Origin: an uncultured Lachnospiraceae bacterium
Lineage (GTDB): Bacteria; Bacillota; Clostridia; Lachnospirales; Lachnospiraceae
Assembly (NCBI GenBank): GCA_902496125.1
Contig: CABUZU010000001.1
Location: forward strand, 1-51,505
Length of the DNA: 51,505 bases
Direction of reading: 5' to 3'
The notes under the pieces are model-generated. The model searched no databases, was not told where the DNA came from, and was given only the letters and a program-made list of their open reading frames with translations. The position numbers and the translations under genes were made by a program. This document shows, piece after piece, positions 2,863-32,547 of the stretch (position 1 is its first letter; each line of letters opens with the position of its first letter).

Positions 2863-3526
2863 ATGAGTAAATCTAATAAAAAAGAATATCGTATTCGTAA
2901 AATTCGTACCAACCGATGAATTTCATAAACTAACAAGAAAAAGAAATGACCAGATTTCAGATCTGATGCATAAAGTGACAAAACACTTTGTATTATGGTG
3001 CGTAGAACATCGTATCGACACCATTGTACTCGGTGAAAATACCCTTTTGAAACAAAAATCGAATCTAGGAAAAACAAACAATCAAAACTTTGTAGCCATT
3101 CCTTATCAGATGCTGAAAAATATCATAAAATATTTAGCAAATGAAAAAGGGATTCATTGCGTATGTCAAGAAGAAAGTTATACTTCGAAAGCTTCTTTTT
3201 CAGACCATGATTTTATTCCTGTATATAAAAAAGAGGAAAATAAGACGTATACTTTTTCTGGAAAACGTGGAGTAAAAGGTTGTCAAGGATTATATCAAAG
3301 TAAAGAGGGACATCTTTTAAATGCGGATTTAAATGGAAGTGCAAATATTTTAAGAAAAGCATTTCCTCATGCATTTACAGAATCAAATACACCTAATTTT
3401 GCAGACATAGAGATTATTGTTCATCCGAATTATGAAAAAAGACAAGAATTAAAGGAAAGACAAAAGCGTACGGTCATTTTAAGCCATTCGAAATCAAAGA
3501 GATTAAATCGTAAGAAGGTTGCGTAA
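2863..3526 (+). pseudogene. tnpB: IS200/IS605 TnpB, internally deleted and frameshifted
   Basis: GGAGG RBS and ATG at 2863 give MSKSNKKEYRIRKIRTNR*. Another frame resumes at about 2909 (PTDEFHKLTRKRNDQISDLMHK...IVLGEN...QEESYTSKAS...NADLNGSANILRK), which is the TnpB C-terminal RuvC part. Confidence 0.85.
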
Positions 3527-9559: not shown

Positions 9560-10777
9560 TCAAATACCTGCTACCTCCGCAATATATGCTGCCCAATATT
9601 TATAGTAACTAAATGTAGGATGAATTCCATCACTAGAATATTTATCAATCAAATAATCCGTTGATAGATAAGAAATCTTTTTCTTTTTACATAATTTTTC
9701 AATCGCTTGATTGTAATCATCCACATGCTTAAACAATGGACGTTTTTTTAACGTTGATTGTTTTATATGAGTAACCTTACAAATATAAATTGTTGCATCG
9801 GGCAATTGTTTTTGTATCTTATTTATTTTCTCTTCATATAAACGGATAAAATGCTTGGCATCTCCATTGTAATATTCGATATCGTTTAATCCATATTCTA
9901 AAACAACAATCTTTGGTAGCATTTTAGATACTGTAGCGATATGCTTATCAATCGTTGCCATACCTGCTCCACGCTTTGCAACTACGGATTGAGAATCTAA
10001 TAGATTATATTCTATTAATCCCATTGCTAGTGAATCTCCCATTACTACAATTTGACCGTCTATAAATCTCTTTTTCAAATCTTTTGTATTTAATTTTTCT
10101 TTGGTTATTTTCCCTGTAGCTTTTTTACTCGTATTCTTCGTCTTTTTCGGTGGAATCACTTGATTTGATACAACCGCTAAATCTACTTTTTCCTTTACTA
10201 CCAAATTGGCTTTCGCACAAGAGTTACTATTTTTTCCCAATGCTTTGCTTAAATATTGGTCTGCAATACTAGAGTTTAAATAAAGATTTCCAGTAATGGA
10301 TTTACCGATTATCTTTCCCTCATGTGAAACAATGTAGTTTGTCATTTTATCACTTTTAATATTATTTTTTTCTAAAATAATATTGGGATACTTCAAATCC
10401 TTAATTTGTTGCAAATCTTCAATCGATGAATCATCCACTATAATTCCAATAAATCCAATATGGTCTTGCTTTAATTGTTCATAGTAATCATTCATCTGTT
10501 TCGCTACTGTTCCATCAGACTCTTTAGATGGACTCCAACAAAATACCACACAAGCATCATAATCGGAAAATATATGCTCTGTAATTTTTGTCCCTGTAGC
10601 TGTTTGTCCAGTAAACTTAAAAAATCCTGTATTTTTATCTAATACATGAAAGACCATGAATACACCAAATAAACATAGTAATACTACCAATAGAATTATT
10701 GTTTGTATCGTACTTTTATAAGGTCTTTTTTGCATATGCATCACCAATTCTAAAGTTCTTTCGATTTTTTTGTACAA
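9560..10777 (-). CDS. GDSL/SGNH hydrolase with N-terminal TM and a thioredoxin-like domain
   Basis: GDSL, GLND and DGIHP motifs in the C-terminal half; start uncertain. Confidence 0.8.
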   Translation of the reverse strand: MYKKIERTLELVMHMQKRPYKSTIQTIILLVVLLCLFGVFMVFHVLDKNTGFFKFTGQTATGTKITEHIFSDYDACVVFCWSPSKESDGTVAKQMNDYYEQLKQDHIGFIGIIVDDSSIEDLQQIKDLKYPNIILEKNNIKSDKMTNYIVSHEGKIIGKSITGNLYLNSSIADQYLSKALGKNSNSCAKANLVVKEKVDLAVVSNQVIPPKKTKNTSKKATGKITKEKLNTKDLKKRFIDGQIVVMGDSLAMGLIEYNLLDSQSVVAKRGAGMATIDKHIATVSKMLPKIVVLEYGLNDIEYYNGDAKHFIRLYEEKINKIQKQLPDATIYICKVTHIKQSTLKKRPLFKHVDDYNQAIEKLCKKKKISYLSTDYLIDKYSSDGIHPTFSYYKYWAAYIAEVAGI

Positions 10778-11541
10778 GCTTTCATCGCTTCGATAACAGA
10801 GCTTCTAAAGCCTTTTTCTTCTAATACTCGAACTGCTTCAATTGTTGTTCCAGCTGGTGAGCATACCATATCCTTTAATTCCCCTGGATGCTTTCCCGTT
10901 TCTAATAATAGTTTTGCACTGCCAATAACTGACTGAGCTGCAAATTCATAAGCCATTGCTCGCGGCATACCATCTGCAACTGCTGCATCTGCCATCGCTT
11001 CAATAAACATAAAGACATAGGCCGGTGAACTACCACTTACCGAAACTACTACATCCATTAAAGATTCTGGTACAATTTCTGTTCTACCACAGCTTCCTAA
11101 AATCTCTAATACCATCTTTTTATCTTCATCAGTAATTAATTTTCCAGGACATATTGCCATCATACCCTCTCCTACTAAAGCTGGAGTATTTGGCATTACA
11201 CGAATTAATTTAACTTGCTTTTCAAATGTAGCCTCTAGCCACTCTAATGTCTTTCCTGGTGCAATCGAAATAACAATTTGATTTTCCTTTACTTCATCTT
11301 TAATTTCTTTAATGACTTCTTCATAATACTGTGGCTTAATTGCTAAAATCAAAACATCGGTCTGCTTTACTACTTCAATATTTGTCTTAACAGCACAAAC
11401 ACCAAATTCATTTTTTATTTGCTCTGTAGTTTTTCCCTTATCCGAAGCAATGACCCCATCAGGAGATGCAATTTTTTTTGCAAGAATCCCATTCATGATT
11501 GCTCCACCCATGTTTCCACAACCAATAAATCCAATACTCAT
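10750..11541 (-). CDS. proC: Pyrroline-5-carboxylate reductase
   Basis: GFIGCGNMG, RVMPNTP, SGSSPAY and CSPAGTT motifs. Confidence 0.97.
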   Translation of the reverse strand: MSIGFIGCGNMGGAIMNGILAKKIASPDGVIASDKGKTTEQIKNEFGVCAVKTNIEVVKQTDVLILAIKPQYYEEVIKEIKDEVKENQIVISIAPGKTLEWLEATFEKQVKLIRVMPNTPALVGEGMMAICPGKLITDEDKKMVLEILGSCGRTEIVPESLMDVVVSVSGSSPAYVFMFIEAMADAAVADGMPRAMAYEFAAQSVIGSAKLLLETGKHPGELKDMVCSPAGTTIEAVRVLEEKGFRSSVIEAMKACTKKSKEL

Positions 11542-14987: not shown

Positions 14988-15968
14988 ATGAAAATTGCTT
15001 TTTATGGAACAAAACCTTATGATCGCCTGTGGTTTGAACCCTTAAGTAAGGAATACGGGCATGAGATTTTATTTATTGATGGACTCCTTACAATGGATAC
15101 CGTCTCTCTTGCAAATGGATGTGGTGCAGTCTGTGTCTTTGTCAATGATAAAGTAGATAAAGAGCTTATCGATACACTTTATCAGATGAACGTCCAAGGT
15201 ATTTTACTTCGCTCGGCTGGGTTTAATCATGTGGATATTAAAGCTGCTAAAGATAAGCTTACCATCTTACGTGTACCTAGCTATTCGCCTGAAGCTGTTG
15301 CAGAATTTGGTGCTGCTCTTCTACTAACCATTAATAGACAGACACACCGTGCCTATGCAAGAACTAGAGATTTCAATATGACGATTAATGGTCTAATGGG
15401 AACCGACTTACATGGTAAGACTGCTGGTATTATCGGTACTGGTAAAATTGGACGCGCGATGATTCAAATTTTAAAAGGCTTTGGTATGAATATACTCGCT
15501 TATGACTTGTATCCAGACCATGGATTAGATGTGGAATATACCGATTTAGATTATCTTATTGCCAATAGTGACTGCATTTCCCTTCATTGCCCACTTACCG
15601 ATGGAACCTATCACCTTATCAATAACAAAACCATTTCCATGATGAAAAAAGGCATTTATCTAATTAATACTTCTAGAGGTGCATTAATTGATTCATCCGC
15701 ACTTCTAGAAAGCCTTCGTTCCACTGATATCTTCGCCGGTGTTGCACTTGATGTATATGAAGAAGAAGACGGTGTATTTTATGAAGACTATTCCAACCGC
15801 GTAATCTTAGATGACACCTTAGCAAGACTTACTACTTTTCCTAATGTATTAATTACTTCTCATCAAGGATTCTTTACAAAAGAAGCGTTAAAGGCAATTG
15901 CCGAGACGACACTTTTTAATGCAACCTGCCTTGAAAAAAAGCAAGAGTTTGTCAATGAAGTATTATAA
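14988..15968 (+). CDS. ldhA: D-lactate / D-2-hydroxyacid dehydrogenase
   Basis: RVPSYSPEAVAE, GTGKIG, SLHCPL, INTSRG, LDVYEEE and TSHQGFFT motifs. Confidence 0.88.
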   Translation: MKIAFYGTKPYDRLWFEPLSKEYGHEILFIDGLLTMDTVSLANGCGAVCVFVNDKVDKELIDTLYQMNVQGILLRSAGFNHVDIKAAKDKLTILRVPSYSPEAVAEFGAALLLTINRQTHRAYARTRDFNMTINGLMGTDLHGKTAGIIGTGKIGRAMIQILKGFGMNILAYDLYPDHGLDVEYTDLDYLIANSDCISLHCPLTDGTYHLINNKTISMMKKGIYLINTSRGALIDSSALLESLRSTDIFAGVALDVYEEEDGVFYEDYSNRVILDDTLARLTTFPNVLITSHQGFFTKEALKAIAETTLFNATCLEKKQEFVNEVL

Positions 15969-16075
15969 TCTACTTGACTTGAATTAAAATTTGTAGGATA
16001 CTGTAATCTATCGGAGAATAATCCCTCACCCTTCGATGGATTACTGTAAATAATTTTTTATAGGAGGAACAATCT

Positions 16076-18358
16076 ATGATTAAACTTTATGAAACTGGAG
16101 CCTATCTATTAAATGGAGACACTCTAGTGACCGATAATGCAGATGCTCCTGCACTACTCTCTTCTTTATTAGGTCAGGTTCCTAATAAAGAAGAAGCTTC
16201 ACATGGAACAATGGCATATTCCATTTTACAAGCTCATAATACCTCTGGTGATGATAAACAGTTAAAAATCAAATTCGACTGTTTAACTTCTCATGATATT
16301 ACATATGTTGGTATTATTCAAACTGCAAGAGCAAGCGGATTAGAGAAATTCCCTATCCCTTACGTTTTAACAAACTGTCATAATAGTCTCTGTGCTGTTG
16401 GTGGTACAATTAATGAAGATGACCACATGTTTGGTCTTACCTGTGCACAAAAATACGGCGGAATCTATGTACCTCCTCATCAGGCTGTTATCCACCAATA
16501 TGCTAGAGAAATGCTCGCTGGCTGTGGAAAAATGATTCTAGGTTCTGATAGCCACACTCGTTATGGTGCTCTTGGTACTATGGCAATTGGTGAAGGTGGT
16601 GGCGAACTAGCAAAACAACTTCTTGGTCGTACCTATGACATTAAATCTCCAGAAGTTGTTGCAATCTATTTAACTGGTGAACCTATAAAAGGAGTTGGTC
16701 CTCAAGACGTTGCACTTGCTATTATCGGAGCTGTATTTAACAATGGATATGTAAATAATAAGGTTATGGAATTTGTAGGTCCTGGTGTTGATAAATTAAG
16801 TGCAGATTTTCGTATCGGTATCGATGTCATGACGACTGAAACGACCTGTCTATCCTCCATTTGGAAAACTGATTCCACTATTAAAGATTTCTTAGAAATC
16901 CATCATCGTGGTGATGCTTATAAAGAATTAAATCCTGCTAATGTTGCTTACTACAACGGCGTTGTATACGTTGATTTAAGCACAATTAGACCAATGATTG
17001 CAATGCCATTTCATCCAAGCAATACTTATGAAATCGACTTCGTAAATCAAAACCTTGGTGACGTTTTAGCTGATGTTGAAAAAAGAGCAAAGGTAAGTTT
17101 TGGAGAAAATTGTGACTTTACTTTAACAAATAAAATTATTAACAACAAGCTCTATGTAGACCAAGGAATTATTGCTGGTTGTGCGGGTGGCGGTTTTGAA
17201 AACATCTGTGCAGCAGCTGATATTTTAAAAGATAAATTTACTGGAAATGATAAATTCACATTAAGTGTATATCCTGCAAGTACTCCAATCTATATGGAAC
17301 TTGTTAAGAATGGTGCTGTTGCCGAACTTATGAGAAGCGGTGCAATTGTTAAAACTGCATTCTGTGGTCCTTGCTTCGGTGCTGGTGACACTCCTGCAAA
17401 TGGTGCATTCAGTATTCGTCATTCTACTAGAAACTTCCCGAACCGTGAAGGCTCTAAAATTCAGAATGGTCAGCTTTCAAGTGTTGCTCTTATGGATGCT
17501 CGTTCCATCGCTGCAACTGCTGCCAATAAAGGTTTCTTAACACCTGCTACTGAAATGGATGTTGAATATACTGGTTCTAAATACTTCTTTGATAGCACTA
17601 TTTACGAAAACCGTGTATACGACAGTAAAGGCGTTGCTCACCCAGAAGTTGAAATCCAATTTGGTCCAAATATCAAAGACTGGCCTTCTATGACTGCCCT
17701 TACCAAAGATTTAGTTCTACGTGTAGCCTCTGTCATCCATGACCCAGTTACCACTACCGACGAACTCATTCCTTCTGGTGAAACATCTTCTTTCCGTTCA
17801 AATCCTTTAGGACTTGCTGAATTTACTCTTTCTCGTAAAGACCCAGCTTATGTTGGCAAGGCTAAAGCCGTTCGTACACAAGAAGAAATTAGAAGAGAAA
17901 ATAAGCAAACTACCGATGCCGACTACTTAAAAGCTTTTGAAACCATCAAAGCTAAATTTGCAGATTTTGATACAGCTCAGACCGGAATCGGTTCTACTAT
18001 CTACGCTGTAAAACCTGGCGATGGTTCCGCTAGAGAACAGGCTGCATCCTGTCAGAAAGTATTAGGCGGTTGGGCTAATATCGCAGGTAGCTACGCTACT
18101 AAACGTTATCGTTCAAACTTAATCAACTGGGGTATGTTACCATTCTTATTTGATAAAGAAGAACTTCCATTTGACTTAGATGATTTCATCTTCATTCCTG
18201 GTATTCGCCAAGCTATAATTGATAAGCAGGCAGAGATTACCGCTTATGTTGTTAAGGACGAATTAGTACCGTTTACTGTTCGTTTAGGAGACTTGACAGA
18301 TGATGAAAGAAAGATTATTTTGTCTGGTTGCTTGATTAATTATTATAAAGAAAATTAA
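16076..18358 (+). CDS. Aconitase-family hydratase (YbhJ-like)
   Basis: [40 protein letters not shown] and [10 protein letters not shown] motifs. Confidence 0.9.
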
Positions 18359-18363
18359 AGAAC

Positions 18364-18411
18364 TAGAAAAAGGTTGCAATGTTTCACGTGAAACATTGCA
18401 ACCTTTTTCTA
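18364..18411. terminator. 48-bp perfect palindrome: parS (18380-18395) embedded in a bidirectional terminator
   Basis: TAGAAAAAGGTTGCAA-TGTTTCACGTGAAACA-TTGCAACCTTTTTCTA between convergent genes. Confidence 0.88.
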
Positions 18412-18419
18412 AACTTTAT

Positions 18420-18929
18420 TTAATAAAGCTTTACTTTCTCAGCATCATTTCCAAAATTTCGAAATTTATTAGCTGGCATCTTATTCCAAAATTTTTTAAT
18501 ATCAAATTGGCATTTTTTCAATCGTGCCCCTAAATTAGAACAACTAATTAAATCTCTCTTATATTCTTTCTTCGTTCCACTTTTTGTCAATTCTGCAATA
18601 TTTTTTATTTCAAAAGCATCAACTAGTTCATCTTCTAAGTTTTTAACTTGAGGTATACATATTACATCTTTTATTCCGCTATGTTTTTTCAAGAAATTAA
18701 CATTATCATTCAAAATCGATATATTTGTATCAACATCTGTATCATACACTAATACTACTATTGTTCCAACTTTCAATGGACGAATCCTTGCATTAGTAAA
18801 TCTGTTTTGGACTGGATTGAATTTCTCAACTCTTCCACTCGCAATACATCCTAAATCAGATTTTAATGCATTTAGCAAACTTTTTTCGTCATCTCCCTCG
18901 ACATAGTAATAGTAACTAGCTCTTTTCAT
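18420..18929 (-). CDS. TOPRIM-like (RloB/AbiLii-like) protein
   Basis: YYVEGDDEK and VYDTD acidic motifs, NLEDEL; directly downstream of the ATPase. Confidence 0.55.
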   Translation of the reverse strand: MKRASYYYYVEGDDEKSLLNALKSDLGCIASGRVEKFNPVQNRFTNARIRPLKVGTIVVLVYDTDVDTNISILNDNVNFLKKHSGIKDVICIPQVKNLEDELVDAFEIKNIAELTKSGTKKEYKRDLISCSNLGARLKKCQFDIKKFWNKMPANKFRNFGNDAEKVKLY

Positions 18930-18945
18930 CAGTACACCTCCATAA

Positions 18946-20049
18946 TTATAGGTCTGCTAATTCGTACAACCTATGCAATTCTGGTGCTGTACAAAATAAA
19001 TCATTCTCTACGGCATGTTTCAACGAATCTGTATTACGTTTCAAATACTGTTCAGCATAAACGCACTTTATTGGTCTTTCAGTATCATTTGTATCTTTCT
19101 TTAAAAAGATAAATGAATGCTTTGGTAATTGCATATCTAAAATATCTGTATTATGTGTAGTAAAAAATAACTGTTTTCTATCCGTTAGTTTGTCAATAAT
19201 AATTGATAAACATGCCTTCTCTACATCGCTATTGATATAAGAAAATAATTCATCGCAATAATATAAATCATGTTTATCGCAAATCAACGAAGCAATAATA
19301 TAAGAAATATCAAGTCCAGCCTTTGTACCACTTGACAATACCTCTCCATCAGCAATTCTTCCATCTTTAATAATCGCTGAACAATTCTCCCATTTTATTG
19401 CATAAGAATTATTAATTTCCCTAATCTTAACAATTTCTTTAATTGACGGATCTAGAGTTTGTAATATTTGCTTTAATATATAAATGTAACGTGAATCATC
19501 TTCAATTGTTATATAAGTTTTATTCTTCGAAGCATCTTCAGGATATGAAAAATGCCATCCTTGTGTATTAATTTCTCCATATGAAACTTGTACATCTTTT
19601 TTCTCGTCTAATCGTTTTGCACAAATTTCATAATTATCCTTTTTATTGATACATGTTGCATAAATCTTAATATCAACATCATTCTCCGTGTATTCTGAAT
19701 TTGATTTAGATCCAATATTCATTATAAATCGATATAATACATCTACATTTGTTAAAAAATCAACTTGTAACATTGCACTCTTTTGTTTATCATCTACTTT
19801 ATCCGTAAAACGTTCATATGAACCATCTCTGAAATAATTTGCAAATAGCATTATTAACTTACCTAATGAAGTTTTTCCTGTAGCATTTCCCCCCATAATG
19901 ATATTTACTTTTTTATATCTAAAATTAGGTCTGCTTTCTAAATACTCCATTTCTATTGTAGAATCTACAATTTTTTTAGGATAAGACATATTAATATGAA
20001 AATTTTTGAATGCATACAAATTATCTACTTTTATATCCATTATTACCAT
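18946..20049 (-). CDS. ABC-like ATPase (AAA_21 / RloA / AbiLi-like)
   Basis: Walker A GGNATGKTS, signature LSSGT, Walker B YYCDE, H-loop FFTTHN. Start moved to ATG 20049 (GAGG RBS). Confidence 0.85.
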   Translation of the reverse strand: MVIMDIKVDNLYAFKNFHINMSYPKKIVDSTIEMEYLESRPNFRYKKVNIIMGGNATGKTSLGKLIMLFANYFRDGSYERFTDKVDDKQKSAMLQVDFLTNVDVLYRFIMNIGSKSNSEYTENDVDIKIYATCINKKDNYEICAKRLDEKKDVQVSYGEINTQGWHFSYPEDASKNKTYITIEDDSRYIYILKQILQTLDPSIKEIVKIREINNSYAIKWENCSAIIKDGRIADGEVLSSGTKAGLDISYIIASLICDKHDLYYCDELFSYINSDVEKACLSIIIDKLTDRKQLFFTTHNTDILDMQLPKHSFIFLKKDTNDTERPIKCVYAEQYLKRNTDSLKHAVENDLFCTAPELHRLYELADL

Positions 20050-20216
20050 TGTTTGTCCTCTTTTTTTGTTTTTTTGTTCGTAATTTATGAAGTAATATTC
20101 TTTATTCAAATTATACCTCCTGCACAAATGAAATTCAAGTATATTTTTAATATATGTTCTTATCTAAAAAATATAATTCATTTTTTATTAATTTTCTTTA
20201 TCAAAAAAAGCTGTAA

Positions 20217-20232
20217 TGTTTCACGTGAAACA
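20217..20232. promoter_or_regulatory. parS site
   Basis: Perfect TGTTTCACGTGAAACA, extended by TGTAA/TTACA. Confidence 0.9.
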
Positions 20233-20244
20233 TTACAACCCAGA

Positions 20245-20460
20245 CTGTAGAATGCCAATTCCATCTGGTGGTGGTAATGGTTGCTCTGCCGTTTTATTAA
20301 TAGCCTTCAAAATTTTTTTATGATTATATGGAACAAGCTTTTTTAAGTCTTTCTGAGCTTCTTTAATATACTCGATTTTTCATTCCATTTACAGTATTCC
20401 TCACTCTAATTCTACTTCTACATCTTCTAAATCTTTCTTCTGTAATACCAAGTGATTCCA
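20245..20460 (-). pseudogene. Degenerate type II toxin-antitoxin remnant (antitoxin C-terminus + RelE/ParE toxin N-terminus)
   Basis: Minus strand reads ESLGITE..DLEDVEVELE*, then ATG 20388 ME*KIEYIKEAQKDLK..(frameshift)..KKILKAINKTAEQPLPPPDGIG, truncated next to parS. Confidence 0.65.
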
Positions 20461-20488
20461 TCCCTCAAAAACATAAAATAATTTGTGT

Positions 20489-22348
20489 TTATTCTTTATG
20501 CCAAATTGTCAAAATGCCATCAAGTGATTCATATTCAAAATAACCATTCTCTTTCAACAGTTCTATTAAGTTTTCATAACCATTATTTAGACCGCCTGTC
20601 GCATATTTTTTATATGAATTATTTACCGAAATATTTAATACAACATAGTCGGTCTCCAGTAGATGTTCTTGAGAACAATATTCTACATCATATAATATTT
20701 CTCTCTGAGAAAGATATGTAGTGTAAAATGTAGTGGCAGTAACTGATGCCCCATCAGGAATCATATCTAAGGTGTCACGAATATTCTGATAATATCTATA
20801 CTGCTGGACTGCCTGTACGGGATAATTAACTGCTTTCGGAACAACTACTCTAGCAAAACACCCTACGCTTATAACAGCAGATGAAATCAAAATTAATATT
20901 CGTTTCCAGTTAATCTTTAAGTCAGCAAGATTTATAACCATCAGATACGCAAGAAATGCATTAGAACCAAATGTGTACTGAAAAAAAATATCATGCTGAT
21001 ATTTATAGTCTGGCATGAGATTTACTAAGATATAAGGAATTAGTAAAATGTATCGCTCATATCGTCTTGTCAACAGCGGAAGTCCCAATAAAGGTAAAAG
21101 TGTCAAGGCAATAAAATATAGTTTTTCTGTGTCTACACACTCATAAATTGTTTTCATAGGATTGAGAATCACCGACTTAATAACGGTAATCAATGAGGTC
21201 GATCCATCATACATAAAATTGCTATAACGGTATGTCATAACACCGTCTCCGTGTTCTGACAGATATCCAGTAACAACAACGAACCAGCAAATGGATATCA
21301 CAAGCAAAGCAAGCCCAGTTATAAGATTTTGTGAATCCAATTTATTGAACCGTAAGACAGTTTTAGCAATCAGCCACAGAGCAATCACCGCCACATATAC
21401 AGCAGCGTCCTCTTTGACCATCAATGTGAGTACAGAAGCAATAATGGTAATCGCTATACTCTTTTTGTCGACACCGTAGAACAACCAAAGAAGCAAAGAA
21501 GTTAAGAAGCAGTTTTCGTGAATGTCATAACTTGTACCACCAGAAAAAGCCGGATATAAAAGCAGGACCAAACACATCAACATTCTCTGTGCACCTGTCA
21601 GACCATGATACTTTCCAATTTTCCACAAAGGGATTACTGAAGAAGTTATGACTGCTGCTTGAAGTACCTGTAAAGTGGCAGGAGTTGGGACCAACCAGTA
21701 AAACGGCAACATTAAATAATAGATTGGTGAAACATGGACGGCAAAATGGGACAGTAAACCGTTGCGCTCAACTGTGGTCATAGGCAAACAAGACTCTTTC
21801 ATATTATAGAACATTTGAGAAAAAATACCGAAGTCATAAGTCGGTGAACTGAAACTATACACACGTCCTACCGTCCATGCACTAGCAAACACCCCAAAAG
21901 CTATCGACAATCCTACAGTTATCCAAACATAGACTTTATGTGATTTCTTTAGCTCGATAATTGGTTCCTCACTTTTATCCCAGCCATAAATATTGAAAAC
22001 AACTAAAATAATCAACACTAATATGCAAACCGTAAGAAAAGCCCCTGTGGAATTTGACAACAAGGCAATAATTGCAAGAACGGCAAATGCTATAACAATG
22101 CTCAATCGCTCCGCTCTCTCTATTTTTGCAATGTAAGATATTCTAACCAGTAGGATAGTGAGGATACAGGCAATTCCAATTATCCGAATCAAGGACATTT
22201 GTGCCAGACCCGCTAGTTTTGCTAGATCTCGCAATTCGTTAGGCAGAATGGAATACTCTATTACAACAGCCAATAACCATGAAAGGATAATGTGGCGAAC
22301 AAAATCGGCAACATTAAATGAATTGCAAAAAATTTTAAAATTAGACAT
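20489..22348 (-). CDS. DUF2079-type polytopic membrane protein (GT-C-like)
   Basis: YDFGIFSQMF, SHFAVHVSPI, YDIHENCF, VKEDA and FQY motifs; RBS AGGAGGT supports start at 22348. Confidence 0.8.
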   Translation of the reverse strand: MSNFKIFCNSFNVADFVRHIILSWLLAVVIEYSILPNELRDLAKLAGLAQMSLIRIIGIACILTILLVRISYIAKIERAERLSIVIAFAVLAIIALLSNSTGAFLTVCILVLIILVVFNIYGWDKSEEPIIELKKSHKVYVWITVGLSIAFGVFASAWTVGRVYSFSSPTYDFGIFSQMFYNMKESCLPMTTVERNGLLSHFAVHVSPIYYLMLPFYWLVPTPATLQVLQAAVITSSVIPLWKIGKYHGLTGAQRMLMCLVLLLYPAFSGGTSYDIHENCFLTSLLLWLFYGVDKKSIAITIIASVLTLMVKEDAAVYVAVIALWLIAKTVLRFNKLDSQNLITGLALLVISICWFVVVTGYLSEHGDGVMTYRYSNFMYDGSTSLITVIKSVILNPMKTIYECVDTEKLYFIALTLLPLLGLPLLTRRYERYILLIPYILVNLMPDYKYQHDIFFQYTFGSNAFLAYLMVINLADLKINWKRILILISSAVISVGCFARVVVPKAVNYPVQAVQQYRYYQNIRDTLDMIPDGASVTATTFYTTYLSQREILYDVEYCSQEHLLETDYVVLNISVNNSYKKYATGGLNNGYENLIELLKENGYFEYESLDGILTIWHKE

Positions 22349-22409
22349 AAAAAGTACCTCCTGTACCAATAGTGTACAAGAGGTGTCTTTCATAAATTTG
22401 GAATAATTC

Positions 22410-24008
22410 TTACAAATTTCTTTCAATTTTAGGAAGTTCTACAATAGCACCAAATTGATCTCCGTCTACCAATACTCTAAATAAACCACCGACAGATTCT
22501 GTATAGGTTTGAGCAATTGCAAGACCTAAACCGCTACCCTTTGTAGAACGAGATTTATCCCCACGGGCAAATCGTTCTATGATTTCGTCTGGCTTGAAAT
22601 CCATCTCATAAGAGGCAGTATTCACCATACGGATAAAATAATTGTTCTCTGTTTCCTTGACCTCAAGATAAATTCGGGTGCCGGTTAATGCGTATTTGAT
22701 TGCATTACCCAAAAGATTCGCAAATACTTGGTGCATTCTCGCTCCATCAGTAATGACAGGGAGCGTTTCAGCACAATAACTACGTTTCACAGTAAGACCA
22801 GAATTCACAAGCTGATCGTCAAATAATCCGATCGTCTGTTCCAATAATCGAATTAGATCAATTTGGTCTTTCTTGCTTTCTATTGCGCCACTAGATACTT
22901 TGGTTAACTCAAAAAGAGATTCTACAAGATCATTCATATAAACAGCTTTCTGATGCAGATAGCGAAGCTGTTCTTGTCCCTTGGGAGATAGTATTTCATT
23001 TTGCAGAAGTTCGCTATAACCAATAATAGATGTAAGCGGTGTACGCAGATCGTGAGATACATTGGAGATCAATTCGACCTTGAATTGTTCACTGGTGACA
23101 GCAGTACGAACCGCTTCTTCATGCTGAACTTGCACATCCAGAAGCTGAGCTTCCGTTTGAGCAAAAGTGCCGTCACCCACCGTGATGGGCTTACCCTTCT
23201 GATAGTTATTAAGCTGTTTCTTGAAATGATTGAGATCCGTTCCGTATTTCCAAAGGCACAGAAATCCAATAACTGATATTGCTATAAACTCAAAGACAAT
23301 AAACCACAATGCTTCGTATATAAAATTCGCATCTAAGAAAATACCAAAAAAACAAAGTAGCACGATCCAAGGAATAACAATCCATCCAGCAAAGATCAAC
23401 AAAGAAATTTGTGGAATAGTACATCGTTTAGTAATTCTATGAACCAAACACCAAGACACAGAAAACTTTGCCCTTATCCATCCAATCAGCTCACGAACAT
23501 TCAATAAAACTAAAAATATACTGATAATCCTCGAAAACACGCGTAATATATTAATCATAGAACTTTGCGTGTATTCTGTATAAAAAGTCGCATTATATAC
23601 CATCGCTAACAAAGCCAGTATCAGACTGACTCCATCTGGTCCAAAGAAAGGCATAGTCTGGAATAATACGACAATTGCTATAAAAGCAACGACAACAGAA
23701 ATCAAAGAAAGGATAGAGCCTATCATCCTTTCAGAAAGATAATTCTTTTTCTCAGTTGTGCTAAATGTCTTTGATTGGGTTAAGTCAATATCAGAAAATG
23801 ATTGATCAATTATATCACTCTCAAGACTTTCTTCTGGTGATGTTGTTGTAGGATCTCCTGTTTCCATCATTGTTATGGATACCGTAGTTTCATCGGTGTT
23901 GTCATCTTCTTTAATAATATTGTTCAACATTTGTTGTCCTAAGGTCCAACAAAATGCTGCTATGAAAAGTAGAATAAATGCAACTACATTATGTCGTTTC
24001 AAAAACAT
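22410..24008 (-). CDS. Sensor histidine kinase
   Basis: H-box NVSHDLRTPLT, N-box NLLGNAIKY, G-box GSGLGLAIA; several TM segments. Confidence 0.93.
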   Translation of the reverse strand: MFLKRHNVVAFILLFIAAFCWTLGQQMLNNIIKEDDNTDETTVSITMMETGDPTTTSPEESLESDIIDQSFSDIDLTQSKTFSTTEKKNYLSERMIGSILSLISVVVAFIAIVVLFQTMPFFGPDGVSLILALLAMVYNATFYTEYTQSSMINILRVFSRIISIFLVLLNVRELIGWIRAKFSVSWCLVHRITKRCTIPQISLLIFAGWIVIPWIVLLCFFGIFLDANFIYEALWFIVFEFIAISVIGFLCLWKYGTDLNHFKKQLNNYQKGKPITVGDGTFAQTEAQLLDVQVQHEEAVRTAVTSEQFKVELISNVSHDLRTPLTSIIGYSELLQNEILSPKGQEQLRYLHQKAVYMNDLVESLFELTKVSSGAIESKKDQIDLIRLLEQTIGLFDDQLVNSGLTVKRSYCAETLPVITDGARMHQVFANLLGNAIKYALTGTRIYLEVKETENNYFIRMVNTASYEMDFKPDEIIERFARGDKSRSTKGSGLGLAIAQTYTESVGGLFRVLVDGDQFGAIVELPKIERNL

Positions 24009-24693
24009 ATCCTATCCCCCAAACCACTTTCAAATACTCCGGTTTCTTTGGATTTAACTCCAACTTATTCCTGATACGACTGATATGAACCATGACCGTG
24101 TTTTCAACTGCATAAGCATCACTCTTCCAAACTCGCCCATAAATTTCTTCTGCTGAATATACCCTGTTTGGATTGGACATCAGCACTTTGAGAATCTTGA
24201 ACTCTGTTGCAGTAAGTCGAACTGACTGACCACGGACAATGAGCTGTTTGGTAACTGTATTCAGAACAATATTACCTGCTTTTATTTCAGCGTCAGATTT
24301 TGTTTCACGAATAGAACCAAAATCGTCATATCTGCGAAGAAGTGCCTTAACTCTGGCAAGCAACTCCTGTTGGTAGAAAGGCTTTACTAAGTAATCATCC
24401 GCCCCTGCTTCAAGCCCAATTACACGGTCTGACCCCTCTGCCTTTGCGGATAAAATAAGAATAGGGACGTTGTTGTTTTTACGAATACGCATGGTAGCGA
24501 TAATGCCATTGCACTGCGGCATCATAACATCCATAATAATAAGATGTGGATGGTTTGTATTTACGATATGGCAAGCAGCTTCTCCATTATAGGCAGTCAA
24601 CACTTGGTATCCTTCTTGCTTCAAGGAAGTTTCAATGATATTAACAATGGAAAAGTCATCATCAACAACAAGAATTTGATATGTATCTTCCAT
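23989..24693 (-). CDS. OmpR-family response regulator
   Basis: VVDDD, MDVMMP, GADDYLVKPF, VHISRIR and VWGIGY motifs. Confidence 0.95.
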   Translation of the reverse strand: MEDTYQILVVDDDFSIVNIIETSLKQEGYQVLTAYNGEAACHIVNTNHPHLIIMDVMMPQCNGIIATMRIRKNNNVPILILSAKAEGSDRVIGLEAGADDYLVKPFYQQELLARVKALLRRYDDFGSIRETKSDAEIKAGNIVLNTVTKQLIVRGQSVRLTATEFKILKVLMSNPNRVYSAEEIYGRVWKSDAYAVENTVMVHISRIRNKLELNPKKPEYLKVVWGIGYVFETT

Positions 24694-24919
24694 GAAAAAT
24701 CTCCTTTCATTGAATAATTATAATATTATTATGGAATAAAATTATAAAATTTTATTCCTCTAATACTTTTCTCATTCAAAATTTATCTTATAATTATATT
24801 ATTTGAAATAAAAAATGTAAATAGTACAAATTAAGTAAGTTTTTGCTTGCCCTTGTTAAAATATCTTTTATTATATCCTCTCTTTTATAAATTACAAGTA
24901 AACACCTTGCTTCCCTTCT

Positions 24920-25749
24920 CTAAGATAAATATTGTGAGGTCTCTTTACACATATCATATTTAACTCTGTAATCAAAGTAAATATCACATGTTGTTGGTGC
25001 ATTGTAAATTGTTGTAATTATATAATTTTTTATTGATGAAATCTCTCCTGTAAAATCTTGAAACACCAATTTGATATATTCAAGATGTTTATACCTTATT
25101 TTTCTGAAACGCCCTTTCACCAATTCAACAGGTAAATCTAATTGATTAACTCGAATCGTTGTATCACTTGGCATATTTAAAATTTCTGTCATGAGCAAAA
25201 CAATATTTTCAATAAAAGTATCTTGCATCTGTGGTACATATCCAATCTGTTCCATCACATCTACTTCTGATATGATATGATTGGATAAGATATTATTGCT
25301 TATAGTATTATTATTTATAGTATTATTATATAGACCTACCTTTTTCAGACCTTCAAATTGAACACCTTCATTTTGAACCCCTACAAAACGTGGGTGTGGC
25401 TCTTCTAATATTTCCATATCTACATTTTGTAATGGTGGATTCGGTTCATCTAATAATTCATATTCATAATAATATCTATTATTTTCATCTTTCAACTTAT
25501 ACTGGATGAGATATCCTTGTGTTTTGAGTTCTTTCCACGCACTGCTAAAAGCTCTCTCACCTTCAATACATTTACTCTGTAAAAATCCCTTATACAATGT
25601 AAAATCTTCTAGTGATATGTATGATTGAATTAACACATATAAACCTTTCGCCTTTAATGAAAGATTCTCATCTCGTATTGCAATATTGGAAACCATCGAA
25701 AAATTTACTCTTTTCTTACGAAATTTTCCACCTGTCTTACTACTGACAT
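24920..25749 (-). CDS. Phage/ICE-type replication-initiator-like protein (HTH + DUF6017-like C-terminus); 5' end frameshifted
   Basis: 'RDENLSLKAKGLY...AWKELKTQGYL' HTH and 'VKGRFRKI...IKNYIITTIYNAPTT' tail. The ATG with an RBS at 25749 is out of frame with ORF 24920..25696. Confidence 0.65.
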
Positions 25750-25936
25750 TTTACCTCCTAATCTAATATAAGTCTAATATACTCATTTAAAAATCGTGTT
25801 TTTGAATTTATTTTATTATATATTGGCTTTATAAAAATGTCAATACAAAAAATCTATATTTTCGACTTTTCCCAATGTATAATTGACTTTCTTATTTACA
25901 AATACTATAATAGTTCAAAAGTAAAGGAGATTTCAA

Positions 25937-26152
25937 ATGCTTCAGTATTATAGATTATTCGACTATTTAAGAAAACACAATATTCGTCAAAAAGATTTAT
26001 TAAATGAAAAAATCATAAGTAGTGGAACCTTACAAAAATTAAGAAATAATGAAAGTGTAAACACTTCAATCTTAACAACTTTATGTGATTATTTAAACTG
26101 TGACCTTACAGACATTGTAGAATATGTTCCATCAACCAAAAAAGACGAGTAG
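25937..26152 (+). CDS. Cro/C1-type XRE HTH regulator
   Basis: ISSGTLQKLRNNESV...LCDYLNCDLTDIVEY; AAGGAG RBS and TTGACT-17-TACTAT promoter. Confidence 0.88.
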   Translation: MLQYYRLFDYLRKHNIRQKDLLNEKIISSGTLQKLRNNESVNTSILTTLCDYLNCDLTDIVEYVPSTKKDE

Positions 26153-26178
26153 CCAAATTAATTGCTACTCATCTTTTT
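26140..26178. terminator. Bidirectional terminator
   Basis: AAAAAGACGAGTAGC...GCTACTCATCTTTTT between convergent genes. Confidence 0.75.
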
Positions 26179-27344
26179 TATGAATTCCTATTACTTCTTC
26201 GATCACGATCACTCATTCGATAATATTCCTTTTTCTGTTCATACATCCCTTTATCAGCCTCTTTTACAAGCTCCTCAATCGAAAATTCTTTGTATTCTTC
26301 TGCAATGGCATATCCAACAGACAAACTCAATTCATCAACCTTTTGACCTGACCATTCACTTGTTTTTTTCTTCAATTCAAGAAGACTTGTCTCAATCTGT
26401 TTTTGTTTCATTGTAGTAAATACAACAAATTCATCACCACCGATACGGAATGTCTGCCCCTTCCTACCGATAGATGCTTCAATACACCTAGCAGCTCCAC
26501 AAATCAACTCATCTCCTGCCTCATGTCCAATTGAATCATTCACTACCTTTAATCCATTAATATCAACTAGAAAAACAACTAAATTATCTGGAAAACCTTC
26601 TGCATAAGTATCCATTGTATCCACATAAGCGAAACGGCTTAGAACCCCCGATAACGGGTCATTCGATAATTTTATCTGTTGTTCGGTAAGCTTTTCATCC
26701 AATCGAAGTTGGGAAAACTCCGAATAATGAATATACAAAAATATAGCAGCAAAAGCAGCGGTAAGATATGCCACACGGCATGTTCCTCCTGATAGCTCTT
26801 GTATTGCAATACCAAAATAGGCAAGAGCTATTGCTGTATAAAGCGAGCTTCTATTTTGTTTTTTAAAGGACTTTCCATAATCTAGCATTCGAATCATAAG
26901 GTCAATAATAATCAATATGTAAAAAACCCTATAAATTGGATAAAGTGGTCCATGCGTATAATAATTTTTATCATCAATGATAACCATCCAACCTTCAAAT
27001 GCAGATATTATCTGTATAATCGCATTTCCAATAAATATTTTTTGAAAAATCTTACTCTTTTTATCTTTTTCTTGCATCAGTAAAATCAATGCCCCACCCA
27101 TCATCGGTGTAAACGTATAGTCAGCTGCCTTTACTGCTGCTAGAATGCCTCTTGGAACATTTTCTTTTCCTCCAATACAAACTCCCGCATATTCGGCAAT
27201 TGCTGCTAAAGCAATCAAAATGTTAGTTGTAATAAAAATCCTCTTTTTGTTCCTAGGTAATCGATTGTTCTCCAAAATCAAAATAGAACTTACCGCAAGT
27301 GCCAATACTACTATTATAATTATTGATGTATAATAATTCATCAT
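26178..27344 (-). CDS. Membrane-bound diguanylate cyclase (GGDEF)
   Basis: About 7 TM segments, then DPLSG, DINGLKVVNDSIGHEAGD and RIGGDEF motifs. Confidence 0.92.
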   Translation of the reverse strand: MMNYYTSIIIIVVLALAVSSILILENNRLPRNKKRIFITTNILIALAAIAEYAGVCIGGKENVPRGILAAVKAADYTFTPMMGGALILLMQEKDKKSKIFQKIFIGNAIIQIISAFEGWMVIIDDKNYYTHGPLYPIYRVFYILIIIDLMIRMLDYGKSFKKQNRSSLYTAIALAYFGIAIQELSGGTCRVAYLTAAFAAIFLYIHYSEFSQLRLDEKLTEQQIKLSNDPLSGVLSRFAYVDTMDTYAEGFPDNLVVFLVDINGLKVVNDSIGHEAGDELICGAARCIEASIGRKGQTFRIGGDEFVVFTTMKQKQIETSLLELKKKTSEWSGQKVDELSLSVGYAIAEEYKEFSIEELVKEADKGMYEQKKEYYRMSDRDRRSNRNS

Positions 27345-27526
27345 CGTGTTTTCCTCAATTTCTCTCTATATCCTTCCATAACCAAAATAGGGACCTCTAA
27401 TGAGCCCCCTATTAATTACCACAATCAAAATTATTTATAATTTTTTATAGTATATTCCATATTTCAACAAAAATACAGTATTGATTTTTTAATTATTTTA
27501 TAGTAGAATAATTTATTACCTATTCT

Positions 27527-28006
27527 TTATTTCTCATTTACAAGTTTTCCTGTCATCTGTTCAATTTCTATCTCAAACATCTGAACACGATTTGCAGCTG
27601 AGCTTTTCATCTCTTCTTCTACTTCATCCATTGTAGGATAATATTTTATAGCCAGCCTTCTAAGTCTATCTTCTGCCACATTTTTATCTGCTACTAATTC
27701 CACCTTGCCAAATACAACAACACTCGTCGAATTCCATTCCCATCTTCCTTCTTTTTTGAAACCTTGATTCCAGACAGTGAAGCACACCTTATTACATTTT
27801 TTCATTGCATCTATCTTATGCCCTTCTTTTGCTCCATGAAAATAGATTTTTTTATCGTTTTCATCATAATAAAAATTAATTGGAACTGTATAAGGATATC
27901 CATCATCGCCTATTACTGAAAAAGCTGCCCTTTTTTCAGTTTCTAGTATCTTCTTACATTCCTCATCTGAAATCTGTTGTTTAAATCTTCTCATTCTTCG
28001 AAACAT
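27527..28006 (-). CDS. Pyridoxamine 5'-phosphate oxidase-like / NimA-family flavin-binding protein
   Basis: MFRRMRRFKQQ, GYPYTVPIN, IYFHGAKEGHK and SVVVFG motifs. Confidence 0.88.
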   Translation of the reverse strand: MFRRMRRFKQQISDEECKKILETEKRAAFSVIGDDGYPYTVPINFYYDENDKKIYFHGAKEGHKIDAMKKCNKVCFTVWNQGFKKEGRWEWNSTSVVVFGKVELVADKNVAEDRLRRLAIKYYPTMDEVEEEMKSSAANRVQMFEIEIEQMTGKLVNEK

Positions 28007-28042
28007 ATTAATATTCTCCTCTTTTTCCAAATCAAAGGTTAA

Positions 28043-28810
28043 TTATCTTTTTTTATAAAGAACCAATTCTGGATTTCTTCCATTTTCATCATACGTACAA
28101 ATCATAATAAAATCCATATTTGCAAGAACTCCAAAACATCTTTCTCCTCCAAATTCAGATTCTAATTGATTTCCTAAGTATGTTTTTTGATCGTCTAAAA
28201 ACTTAACCATCTTCCCATTTGGAAGTCTATATTCAAGATTTACATATTTTCCAACAAGTGCATTTAACTTCTCCACCTTAGGCAAGCCTTCTATCTGAAG
28301 CTCATTAATTTCATTCATTAATTTTAACTTAAACTCTTCAAATTGACCATTATCACTAAGCTCATCGTATCTTTTCCAATAGTCCAATTTGGGAAGTAAC
28401 TCTTTCATGTAAGAACGTGCTTGTTCTTCTGTAAAATCTTCATTTACCATATGTTTAATACAAACATCGATCAACTCATCCATATCGTTGTAAGTATAAG
28501 TTCCATCAGAATAGCACCATTTACAATAATCTTCATTTAACATTCCATCATTGTCTCGACCTAGAATTGCATCATCTTCAATTGGCATTCCACAACACTG
28601 GCAAATAAGTTTTCTAGGTGCCCCTAAAAGTGTATTAATTGAAACGTTAAATTCCTTAGATAAAAGTTTTAATGTTTCTGTATTTGGAACGGTTTCACCA
28701 TTTTCCCAACGAGACACGGCTTGTCTTGTAACTAAAACTTTCTTAGCTAATTCATCCTGTGACATTCCTTTTTGAGTACGAAGTTCTAAAATAATATTTT
28801 TTGTTTCCAT
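28043..28810 (-). CDS. XRE regulator with zinc-ribbon domain
   Basis: SQDELA...VTRQAVSRWENG HTH; CQCCGMP...YCKWCY. Confidence 0.88.
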   Translation of the reverse strand: METKNIILELRTQKGMSQDELAKKVLVTRQAVSRWENGETVPNTETLKLLSKEFNVSINTLLGAPRKLICQCCGMPIEDDAILGRDNDGMLNEDYCKWCYSDGTYTYNDMDELIDVCIKHMVNEDFTEEQARSYMKELLPKLDYWKRYDELSDNGQFEEFKLKLMNEINELQIEGLPKVEKLNALVGKYVNLEYRLPNGKMVKFLDDQKTYLGNQLESEFGGERCFGVLANMDFIMICTYDENGRNPELVLYKKR

Positions 28811-28888
28811 TGCAGTTACCTCCTTAAACTATATCATACATGAAAATATATTTTAGGAAAAGCAACTTATTGTTTCCCGTAAAAAATC

Positions 28889-29080
28889 CTATATCACTAC
28901 TAACAGCAATGTCCCTGCCACAATACATACCAATCCCAATGCAGCCTTTTTTGACAACTTTTCTTTAAAAACAATCCATAAAAAAATTAAAAACACGATT
29001 GTTTTAATAGCCGTTGCTACATCTGAATCTTTTTTTTGATTCCACATTTTATCTTCTCCTTTTTTATAGTAGCATTTCAA
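28889..29080 (-). pseudogene. EamA/DMT transporter remnant
   Basis: DSDVATAIKTIV joined directly to VFKEKLSKKAALGLVCIVAGTLLLV; most of the protein is missing. Confidence 0.55.
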
Positions 29081-29107
29081 AAATCAAATATCAAGTTCCT
29101 TTTTAAA

Positions 29108-29123
29108 TGTTTCACATGAAACA
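29108..29123. promoter_or_regulatory. parS site (1 mismatch) overlapping the parA promoter region
   Basis: TGTTTCACATGAAACA; extended -10 TGCTATAAT at 29146-29154. Confidence 0.82.
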
Positions 29124-31411: not shown

Positions 31412-32509
31412 ATGGCAGGCTCAATTTTAGGAGATATTTTTAAAATTAGTACATGGGGAGAATCCCATGGAAAAGCATTAGGGGTTGTCGTAGATGGATG
31501 CCCCGCAGGAATTGAATTATGCGAAGAAGATATTCAAATATATTTAGATAGAAGAAAACCAGGAAAAAACGAATTCACAACAAATCGTAAAGAATCTGAT
31601 TGTGTAGAAATTTTATCGGGAGTATTTGAAGGAAAGACAACCGGAACACCAATTAGTATGGTAGTTTTTAATAAAGACCAACGCTCAAAAGATTATTCAC
31701 AAATTGCAGCTTGTTATCGACCAGGACATGCGGATTATACTTTTGATGCGAAATTTGGATTTAGAGATTATCGTGGTGGTGGACGTTCTTCTGGTCGTGA
31801 AACAATTGGACGAGTTGCTGCTGGTGCAATTGCAGCAAAAGTCTTAAAAGAATTAGGTATTAAACTTTGTGCCTATACGAAAAGTATTGGAGATATCGAA
31901 ATTAATTTTAACAATTTTGATAAAAAATGGATTAATAAAGACCCACTCTATATGCCAGATAAAGAAGCATCTATAAAAGCTCAAGCCTATCTTCAAAAAG
32001 TTCGAGAAGAACAGGACTCTGCTGGTGGGATTATTGAATGTAAAATTTCTAATTTACCAACTGGTATTGGAAATCCAGTATTTGATAAATTAGATGCAAA
32101 TCTAGCAAAGGCAATTTTATCCATTGGAGCTGTAAAAGGCTTCGAAATTGGTAGTGGTTTTGAAGTTGCTAAAATGAAAGGCAGCCAAAACAATGACAAC
32201 TTTAAACTCCAAGGCGATAAAATTATAAAAGAAACAAACCATGCTGGTGGAGTTCTGGGTGGAATGAGTGATGGAGATGAAATTGTATTTCGTGCAGCAA
32301 TCAAACCAACTCCTAGTATTTCTAAAGAACAAAAAACCGTAACAATAGATGGTGAAGAAACTACTATTCAAATTCATGGACGTCATGATCCTGTAGTAGT
32401 CCCAAGAGCTGTAGTAGTAGTAGAATCTATGGCAGCAATTACTGTATTAGACTTGTTACTTTCTGGAATGAGTAGTACAATTGATAGAGTAAAAAAAATT
32501 TACTTATAG
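31412..32509 (+). CDS. aroC: Chorismate synthase
   Basis: GESHG, RPGHAD, RGGGRSSGRET, KPTPSI and GRHDP motifs. Confidence 0.97.
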   Translation: MAGSILGDIFKISTWGESHGKALGVVVDGCPAGIELCEEDIQIYLDRRKPGKNEFTTNRKESDCVEILSGVFEGKTTGTPISMVVFNKDQRSKDYSQIAACYRPGHADYTFDAKFGFRDYRGGGRSSGRETIGRVAAGAIAAKVLKELGIKLCAYTKSIGDIEINFNNFDKKWINKDPLYMPDKEASIKAQAYLQKVREEQDSAGGIIECKISNLPTGIGNPVFDKLDANLAKAILSIGAVKGFEIGSGFEVAKMKGSQNNDNFKLQGDKIIKETNHAGGVLGGMSDGDEIVFRAAIKPTPSISKEQKTVTIDGEETTIQIHGRHDPVVVPRAVVVVESMAAITVLDLLLSGMSSTIDRVKKIYL

Positions 32510-32511
32510 AT

Positions 32512-32547
32512 AAAAGCTAGATGTTTCACGTGAAACATCTAGCTTTT
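32512..32547. terminator. 36-bp perfect palindrome: parS (32522-32537) embedded in a terminator-like hairpin
   Basis: AAAAGCTAGA-TGTTTCACGTGAAACA-TCTAGCTTTT right after the aroC stop. Confidence 0.85.

Follow-up and report, generated by a model that had tools for sequence, protein, structure and literature searches.

What does it mean when two copies of a chromosomal centromere site bracket a small accessory cassette? The question is raised by a 51,505-nucleotide stretch of DNA from an uncultured Lachnospiraceae bacterium (GenBank assembly GCA_902496125.1, contig CABUZU010000001.1; "the window" below means this whole stretch), in which two 37-bp direct repeats with the centromere site parS at their core flank a pair of AT-rich genes. 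A preliminary description had read these repeats as attachment (att)-like junctions or recombination hotspots for the gain and loss of accessory cassettes near the replication origin (oriC). Our analysis points with reasonable confidence to another answer: the repeats would be two copies of a dual-purpose gene-end module with a strain-variable AbiL-type cassette between them, and would be a by-product of how the locus was put together rather than attachment sites. The features on which the argument turns, the left and right hairpins being called H1 and H2, are these.

18364..18411, no strand: H1, a perfect palindrome extended beyond the parS that forms its tip, with an A run on the 5' side and a T run on the 3' side
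18410..20254, no strand: strain-variable segment comprising the cassette, its promoter, H2 and 14 bp, where a same-species contig has 889 other bases
18420..18929, minus strand: small protein of 169 amino acids (aa), AbiLii-like/TOPRIM-like, with invariant acidic motifs (phrog_10204, 3e-13)
18946..20049, minus strand: AbiLi-like ABC/SMC-type ATPase of 367 aa, with a probable ATG start at 20049 behind a GAGGA ribosome-binding site; the open reading frame (ORF) stays open to TTG 20127
20050..20203, minus strand: AT-rich DNA ahead of the cassette, including a promoter-like TTGAAT-17-TATAAT at 20138-20110
20201..20241, minus strand: H2, an asymmetric hairpin with parS at 20217-20232

The anatomy of the repeats is much as it had been described. 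The left repeat (18367-18403) and the right repeat (20204-20240) agree at 33 of 37 positions, and both are centred on a perfect copy of the parS 16-mer TGTTTCACGTGAAACA, at 18380-18395 and 20217-20232. Their longest perfect identity is 20 bp, and the arms, GCAA/TTGC in H1 and GTAA/TTAC in H2, differ by a compensatory change of C:G to T:A that keeps the pairing. The other parS copies do indeed have different flanks, none in the window sharing the H1/H2 arms, and only two minus-strand genes with a 154-bp upstream region lie between the repeats, at a GC content of 0.24-0.32 against 0.35-0.41 in the flanks. The RelE fragment that had been noticed just outside the right copy is also real: it is a RelE/ParE gene cut 14 bp from the repeat.

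When the repeats are folded as RNA, a function at gene ends suggests itself. H1 reaches -32.4 kcal/mol on the plus strand and -32.6 kcal/mol on the minus strand (z of about -12 and -11), a terminator scan flagged it on both strands, and it lies between an aconitase gene on the plus strand and the cassette converging on it from the minus strand. It is thus placed as a predicted bidirectional intrinsic terminator for both. In H2 the minus-strand RNA folds into a stem of 15 pairs with U7 behind it (-19.4 kcal/mol), a G-U pair taking the place of the plus strand's C-A mismatch, whereas the plus strand folds weakly (-12.5 kcal/mol) with no U run, and the scan matched the minus strand only. Because stem and U run occur together on that strand alone, we read H2 as a predicted terminator solely of minus-strand transcripts, namely those of a response regulator-histidine kinase-DUF2079 (RR-HK-DUF2079) operon and of the adjoining toxin-antitoxin remnant. 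An intrinsic terminator calls for a stable stem-loop and a U run where a transcription unit finishes. H1 shows this on both strands and H2 on the minus strand, and both hairpins are suitably placed to close off the aconitase gene, the cassette and the DUF2079 operon. H2 stands about 65 bp ahead of the promoter-like element of the cassette, which scored 10/12 in a consensus scan, such matches being no commoner than in shuffled sequence.

The same hairpins carry the marks of a centromere. A parS scan of the window returned six perfect sites, one with one mismatch and one with two, against a chance expectation of 0.13, and the whole genome, a bin of 219 contigs that is 87.7% complete, holds seven sites with at most one mismatch, all of them between 12.4 and 32.5 kb of this contig. 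In their midst are parA (29168) and parB (29956), and dnaA (42386) is 10-30 kb away. As in ParABS systems, then, there is a match to the 16-bp consensus and a cluster near oriC in a genome with parA and parB, and H1 and H2 are putative ParB-binding sites. The one-mismatch site, TGTTTCACATGAAACA, stands ahead of parA at 29108, and the same variant precedes parA in a species of the same genus (G006; L013 11623). One further site in the window is built like the two repeats.

32512..32547, no strand: H3, a third parS-tipped hairpin, after aroC, with parS at 32522 and other arms (-24.6 and -23.2 kcal/mol)

H3 has an extended palindrome of its own, AAAAGCTAGA-parS-TCTAGCTTTT, and shows that the parS-hairpin design is general in this region. 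The design extends beyond the window. Among 36 sites in the window and nine genus loci, ten have at least 7 bp of extra perfect palindrome around parS, and among the 75 family parS sites listed (there are 266 further matches) a hand count gave at least 8 extra palindromic pairs in 12 and at least 6 in 18. The longer palindromes are accompanied by A and T runs and a position at gene ends, and their arms covary between species. H1, H2 and the hairpins on the aconitase side in five relatives were put into one alignment: in these seven hairpins both sides have changed in 10 of the 19 pairs and 94% of the cells are paired, a value that none of 500 shuffles equalled, while slid alignments were only 38-49% paired. 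The covariation argues that the hairpin structure is kept by selection, and the wider survey gives the impression that centromere sites and terminators are coupled across the family; the portions of the literature that our search covered held no description of parS built into terminators. If parS routinely sits in terminator hairpins at convergent gene ends, ParB loading and transcription boundaries would be physically coupled in this gut Firmicute family. Such coupling would bear on how ParB/SMC loading coexists with transcription, and would yield a simple sequence rule for locating these sites.

The history of H1 becomes clearer when the window is compared with nine of the ten other species of the genus (loci L013-L021; G002 was left out). 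The two genes that form the conserved flanks of the variable region are as follows.

16076..18358, plus strand: aconitase-family hydratase gene (Pfam Aconitase, 9e-92), the conserved left flank, with its predicted transcript end at H1
20489..22426, minus strand: DUF2079 membrane protein gene, last gene of the RR-HK-DUF2079 operon and the conserved right flank

The aconitase protein has 83-89% amino-acid identity in the nine relatives, and in all nine its gene converges on aroC, which is followed by a small gene, parB and parA. The gap between aconitase and aroC contains a parS with long self-complementary arms in five of the nine, a parS without such arms in one and none in three. Because five relatives have a parS hairpin in this gap, H1 is best read as the ancestral terminator of the aconitase gene. 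The gap measures 146-540 bp in seven relatives, in which the site has no cargo, and about 1.04-1.08 kb in G010 and G001. In G001 it holds an ORF for a 166-aa GNAT acetyltransferase (L021 9371-9871; Pfam 3e-11), and additional cargo in G010 (L020) is judged from the size of the gap; neither has a parS there. In the window the block of parA, parB, small gene and aroC is inverted relative to all nine relatives, and about 10.7 kb (18410-29107) lies between H1 and parA, comprising the cassette, the toxin-antitoxin remnant, the DUF2079 operon and four further genes. The DUF2079 operon itself is found in G001, G004 and G002 on other contigs, with no parS in the DNA fetched.

Is the cassette a fixed part of this arrangement? 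Public contigs (assembled contigs, not raw reads) were aligned on 15500-23000, giving 32 listed contig pieces with 825 further ones. One contig of 2503 nt (X7 record 28) follows the window over 17254-18409 with 36 differences, continues with 889 other bases and rejoins it at 20255-20462, and a contig from another study (X1 record 7) has the same right edge. Pieces of the cassette with 0-5 differences were found in three other studies (X1, X2 and X6). The species is therefore polymorphic for 18410-20254, which is a site of gain or loss at the strain level; the lack of contig cover at 20771-22000 in X2 and X6, and of cassette cover in X7, was not counted as evidence. The breakpoints, 18409/18410 and 20254/20255, fall 6 and 14 bp outside the repeats, so that the variable segment takes in H2, which is 14 bp from the break and not at a crossover point, and H1 belongs to the common flank, 6 bp from the break. 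The right breakpoint is also the point at which relE is truncated, and about 200 of the 889 bases would be the rest of relE if the gene is intact in that allele. Two remnants adjoin this breakpoint.

20254..20388, minus strand: RelE/ParE toxin pseudogene that keeps codons 1-45 of 111, is interrupted by TGA at codon 3 and has lost its 3' part
20389..20468, minus strand: 3' remnant of a Phd/YefM-type antitoxin gene, whose likeness to intact modules stops at about 20461-20468

Like type II toxin-antitoxin modules of the RelE/ParE-Phd/YefM kind, 20254-20468 matches PF05016 toxins and the end of a Phd/YefM antitoxin; unlike them, this copy is broken in three places, by the stop at codon 3, the loss of toxin codons 46-111 and the loss of the 5' part of the antitoxin gene. 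The toxin remnant is 91-93% identical to residues 1-45 of 111-residue PF05016 proteins and so covers only that part of the full-length domain, and similarity to intact relE homologues begins exactly at 20255 in 21 of 28 blastn rows. In contigs of X1 and X7, on both sides, the match to the window is lost within the same 13 bases (20450-20462), which suggests that a deletion at a short repeat removed the antitoxin 5' part from the window; three runs share a 1-nt difference at 20434. The best identity to the relE protein in 400 family genomes is 54%, and a contig scan found 33 relE loci at 55-84% identity, none of them with parS, aconitase or DUF2079 nearby and one with relE right next to aroC, while a search of the genus DNA with 20241-20520 gave two short chance-level matches only. 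No relE locus elsewhere can serve as a stand-in for the cassette-less allele. Another genome of the class (L079 1255-3065) has an intact Phd/YefM-RelE module with a 79% identical toxin, ending 8 nt from the aroC stop with no intervening hairpin; more than a single lineage has acquired small mobile modules at the gene ends around aroC.

The cassette that occupies the variable segment resembles known defence operons. Its ATPase matches AbiLi in PADLOC (7e-28), with weaker matches to AriA, PtuA and LmuB, and phrog_5836 (5e-46); Pfam SMC_N and AAA_21 fell below cut-off and phmmer against the PDB found no match. An ABC/SMC-type ATPase as first gene, as expected of AbiL and PARIS, is thus present by virtue of the AbiLi match. 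The window's small protein has no Pfam or PADLOC match of its own, but among seven homologues PADLOC found AbiLii in two (best 4.5e-4) and GajA in one, and E11-G12, D63-x-D65 and E99-D100-E101 are invariant across the seven; its AF2 model has a pLDDT of 87.7. The small protein is a likely effector nuclease. We infer that the cassette is an AbiL/PARIS-class two-gene anti-phage operon, with an ABC ATPase as sensor and a TOPRIM-like effector. AbiL is described as an ABC ATPase with a TOPRIM/OLD nuclease, and grouped with PARIS, in the part of a 2026 review that we drew on (PMC13064643). Like AbiL of Lactococcus (AbiLi/AbiLii) and the related PARIS (AriA/AriB), the cassette has an ABC/SMC-like ATPase followed by a small protein with TOPRIM-type acidic motifs; unlike them, its small protein has no AbiLii match in the window (and two weak ones among the seven homologues), and no match to a solved structure supports TOPRIM.

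The distribution of the cassette is patchy. Full-length relatives at no more than 48% identity occur in 10 of 300 other family genera, and 4 of 400 genomes of the order have one. A decayed copy with 73.5% nucleotide identity survives in G094 (L053, G094:C12, ~10569-11180), in which a C-terminal piece of the ATPase (78% amino-acid identity) is followed by the opening ~20 codons of the small gene and then a terminator. Searches of phage and plasmid records with the cassette DNA returned one 131-nt match at 72% in one set and nothing in the other. Among homologous cassettes a terminator lies about 90 nt upstream of the ATPase start in 3 of 11 loci, which is uninformative. As matters stand, the cassette is a defence system of an ordinary kind with a patchy distribution, and any part of the surrounding repeats in recombination is unproven. 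The locus also shows cleanly, in nature, how a small defence operon takes over from a decaying toxin-antitoxin module some 22 kb from the origin.

Taken together, these results can be arranged as follows. Each module would combine a ParB-binding parS with an intrinsic-terminator hairpin, the parS sitting at the hairpin's tip. H1 would be the ancestral terminator common to the aconitase gene and whatever converges on it, and H2 most likely a lineage-specific copy of the H1 hairpin that stops the DUF2079/toxin-antitoxin-remnant operon just ahead of the cassette promoter. The AbiL cassette would occupy a strain-variable slot, and either its arrival or a later deletion would have destroyed the RelE/ParE-Phd module. 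The repeats would then be a by-product of locus assembly in a region whose genes usually end at hairpins of this kind, and the hairpins would insulate the cassette transcriptionally and add ParB loading sites. The functional side of this account, an AbiL-type operon in a strain-variable slot between two insulating parS-tipped terminators, has good support. The anatomy of the sequence, the covariation of the hairpins, the strain polymorphism with its breakpoints and the family assignments are directly shown, while terminator and ParB function, the paralogy of H2, a role against phages and the order of events are inferred.

Several observations weigh against this account, and the first of them bear on whether H2 is a copy of H1. 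On a flank score of 21 positions, only 6 of 630 parS pairs from the window and the nine genus loci reach the observed 17, and these six are three pairs of positional orthologues together with H1/H2, H2 with the G006 hairpin and H1 with the G006 hairpin. That comparison overstates the relatedness of H1 and H2, since the A run, the core-adjacent AA/TT and the palindromy belong to a common design. A test conditioned on 37 hairpin-type parS sites (26 hand-picked from the family listings, 11 from the earlier loci) showed that 33/37 is reached by 7 of 655 unrelated hairpin pairs (1.1%), and that at the 12 informative arm positions the observed 8/12 is equalled by 47 of 655 (7.2%); flank-only local alignments of H1 and H2 were not significant against shuffles. 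It may be, then, that H2 is independent of H1, that its likeness stems from the shared design (A run, short GC-containing arm, AA-parS-TT) and that it derives from donor DNA of a family member. Design alone imposes 25 of the 33 matches (core, adjoining AA/TT, A run), H2 sits inside the imported segment, and GTTGTAA...TTACAAC arms also occur in an unrelated metagenome contig of 53% GC. That contig belongs to a metagenome scan for GYTGYAA-parS-TTRCARC, which found five loci, all in unrelated organisms of 53-68% GC and none a strain variant, and shows only that arms of this type arise independently. We nevertheless hold an independent H2 to be rather unlikely. H1 and H2 score at best 29/37 and 28/37 against 36 other hairpins, yet 33/37 with each other and each with the G006 orthologue; the flank score was reached in the wider set only by positional orthologues; and parS is absent near homologues of the neighbouring genes elsewhere, at 0 of 14 cassette loci (each with 1.5 kb or more of flank where the contig allowed, and up to ~10 kb in seven), 0 of 33 relE loci and 0 of 3 DUF2079 loci. 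H2 is thus quite probably a paralogue of H1 of local origin, although the account we favour leaves unexplained the mechanism that would copy a 37-bp hairpin 1.8 kb away. Two specific origins were rejected. One would have H2 combine, as a chimera, the left arm of H3 with the right arm of H1, its left flank (20190-20233) being 82% identical to that of H3 (32497-32538) over 44 nt including the core (E 0.02), but 251 of 2000 shuffles do as well once the core is removed. A recent inversion through the parS cores would have left a pair of identical chimeric hairpins behind, and was dismissed because H1 is a perfect palindrome and H2 is not.

The remaining difficulties concern what lies between and beside the hairpins. 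The 889 bases of the cassette-less contig might include a second hairpin, which would favour the view that the hairpins are active recombination substrates, att-like or resembling the PeSL cassettes discussed below, through whose ~20-37 bp palindrome cargo is swapped, lost or inverted in either orientation. A cassette related to ours, with a 41%-identical ATPase, stands directly after the aconitase gene and in the same direction in a distant genus (L032, G084:C36, 900-1260, in a 2184-nt contig), preceded by an ordinary GC hairpin terminator without parS, and hints at a site preference that our preferred explanation leaves out. Structure searches with the small protein found generic Rossmann-like matches only, with no confirmation of TOPRIM: Foldseek gave nothing at E <= 0.001 (the OLD C-terminal region ranked 16th, E 0.025), the best VIA hit reached Z 7.3 on generic Rossmann-like folds (DnaG Z 5.6), and a PDB profile search returned chance matches. 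Finally, the position of the cassette between the hairpins rests on one assembly, and none of the 32 listed contig pieces bridges 18409/18410 or 20254/20255 in cassette-bearing form. Together with the fragmented and incomplete bin, this could mean that an assembler joined the cassette into the locus through a shared parS. Such an artefact is very improbable in our judgement: the junctions fall in unique sequence beyond the repeats, no more than 20 bp are perfectly shared in one run, and the near-identical cassette pieces co-occur with near-identical aconitase pieces in X1, X2 and X6. The recombination view has more to commend it. Probable paralogous repeats flank strain-variable cargo, only 6 bp separate H1 from the left breakpoint, the parA-aroC block has been turned round against all nine relatives with parS at both of its ends and 10.7 kb inserted beside H1, and GNAT cargo occupies the same site in G001 (with G010 by gap size). 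Still, we regard it as unlikely. The right breakpoint is beyond H2, inside relE codon 45; the sequences to the right of H1 and of H2 differ, which speaks against a simple Campbell-type insertion; perfect identity extends over a short run at most; and G001 and G010 have cargo at the site yet no parS, just as the 14 homologous cassettes have none. With parS in most intergenic gaps of the region, some coincidence with breakpoints is to be expected.

The att-like proposal of the preliminary description thus survives in part. What stands is that the locus gains and loses cargo at the strain level, that H1 abuts the left breakpoint, that H2 scores like an orthologue of the aconitase hairpin, and that the aconitase-aroC site or its like receives other cargo. 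The breakpoints outside the repeats and the position of H2 speak against it, as do, in part, the checks that had been suggested. No empty site with a single repeat was seen, the cassette-less contig having its 889 bases instead; different cargo was found at the site, as GNAT, though not between parS repeats; and there is no true excision junction among the listed public contigs. Joints of 18396-18398 to 20214-20216 do occur in contigs, but their sides are only 18-22 nt long and several have foreign letters between them, and we rejected them as parS sites of other organisms. No integrase or recombinase was found among the genes at 13.8-35 kb (none within ~10 kb of the cassette). With neither a cognate recombinase nor single-repeat, cargo-free strains showing a crossover inside the repeats, as attL/attR would have, a dedicated attachment-site function of the repeats is not supported. 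The sole mobile-element protein is a C-terminal part of TnpB, a member of an RNA-guided endonuclease family (186-aa ORF, 2966-3526, 3e-18), and this ORF is probably a fragment.

The hairpins can be set beside several known systems. Like chromosomal parS of ParABS (Firmicutes consensus 16-mer), they contain a perfect 16-bp palindrome and belong to a set of seven copies within ~20 kb around parAB, near dnaA; unlike the classical site, here and at a sizeable share of family sites the 16-mer tips a longer palindrome with A/T runs, gene ends and covarying arms. Like attL/attR and integron attC, short direct repeats flank accessory cargo, and they are palindromic as attC is; unlike them, there is no recombinase, no empty site and no reciprocity in the junction flanks, and the repeat doubles as a host centromere site. 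A further parallel in outline is with PeSL, the promoter/stem-loop cassettes of T4-type phages, which are present in many copies and mediate shuffling, according to the parts of two reports available to us (PMC2839356, PMC4122927). In those parts, as here, repeated terminator-type hairpins bracket small accessory cassettes in variable regions; set against that description, our locus has two copies, breakpoints outside the repeats and no recombinant form in contigs. A bolder possibility is that parS-tipped terminators, each a perfect palindrome and a ParB-bound site at once, are portable, orientation-free boundary modules near the origin, copied and recombining, which would yield both the parA-aroC inversion and the bracketing and exchange of cassettes (AbiL, toxin-antitoxin, GNAT). 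We consider this quite unlikely; if true, the chromosome would have its own counterpart of PeSL shuffling in phages, with centromere sites as the shuffled elements. Either way, the locus poses a testable question, namely whether centromere palindromes promote local rearrangement.

One more region of the 10.7-kb insertion deserves mention. The stretch at 24920-28810 is low in GC (0.26-0.33) and may be a further accessory block. It contains DUF6017, GGDEF, Nim-family (5-nitroimidazole reductase-like) and HTH repressor-like genes, the Nim-family assignment falling under the NCBIfam cut-off (119 bits against 260).

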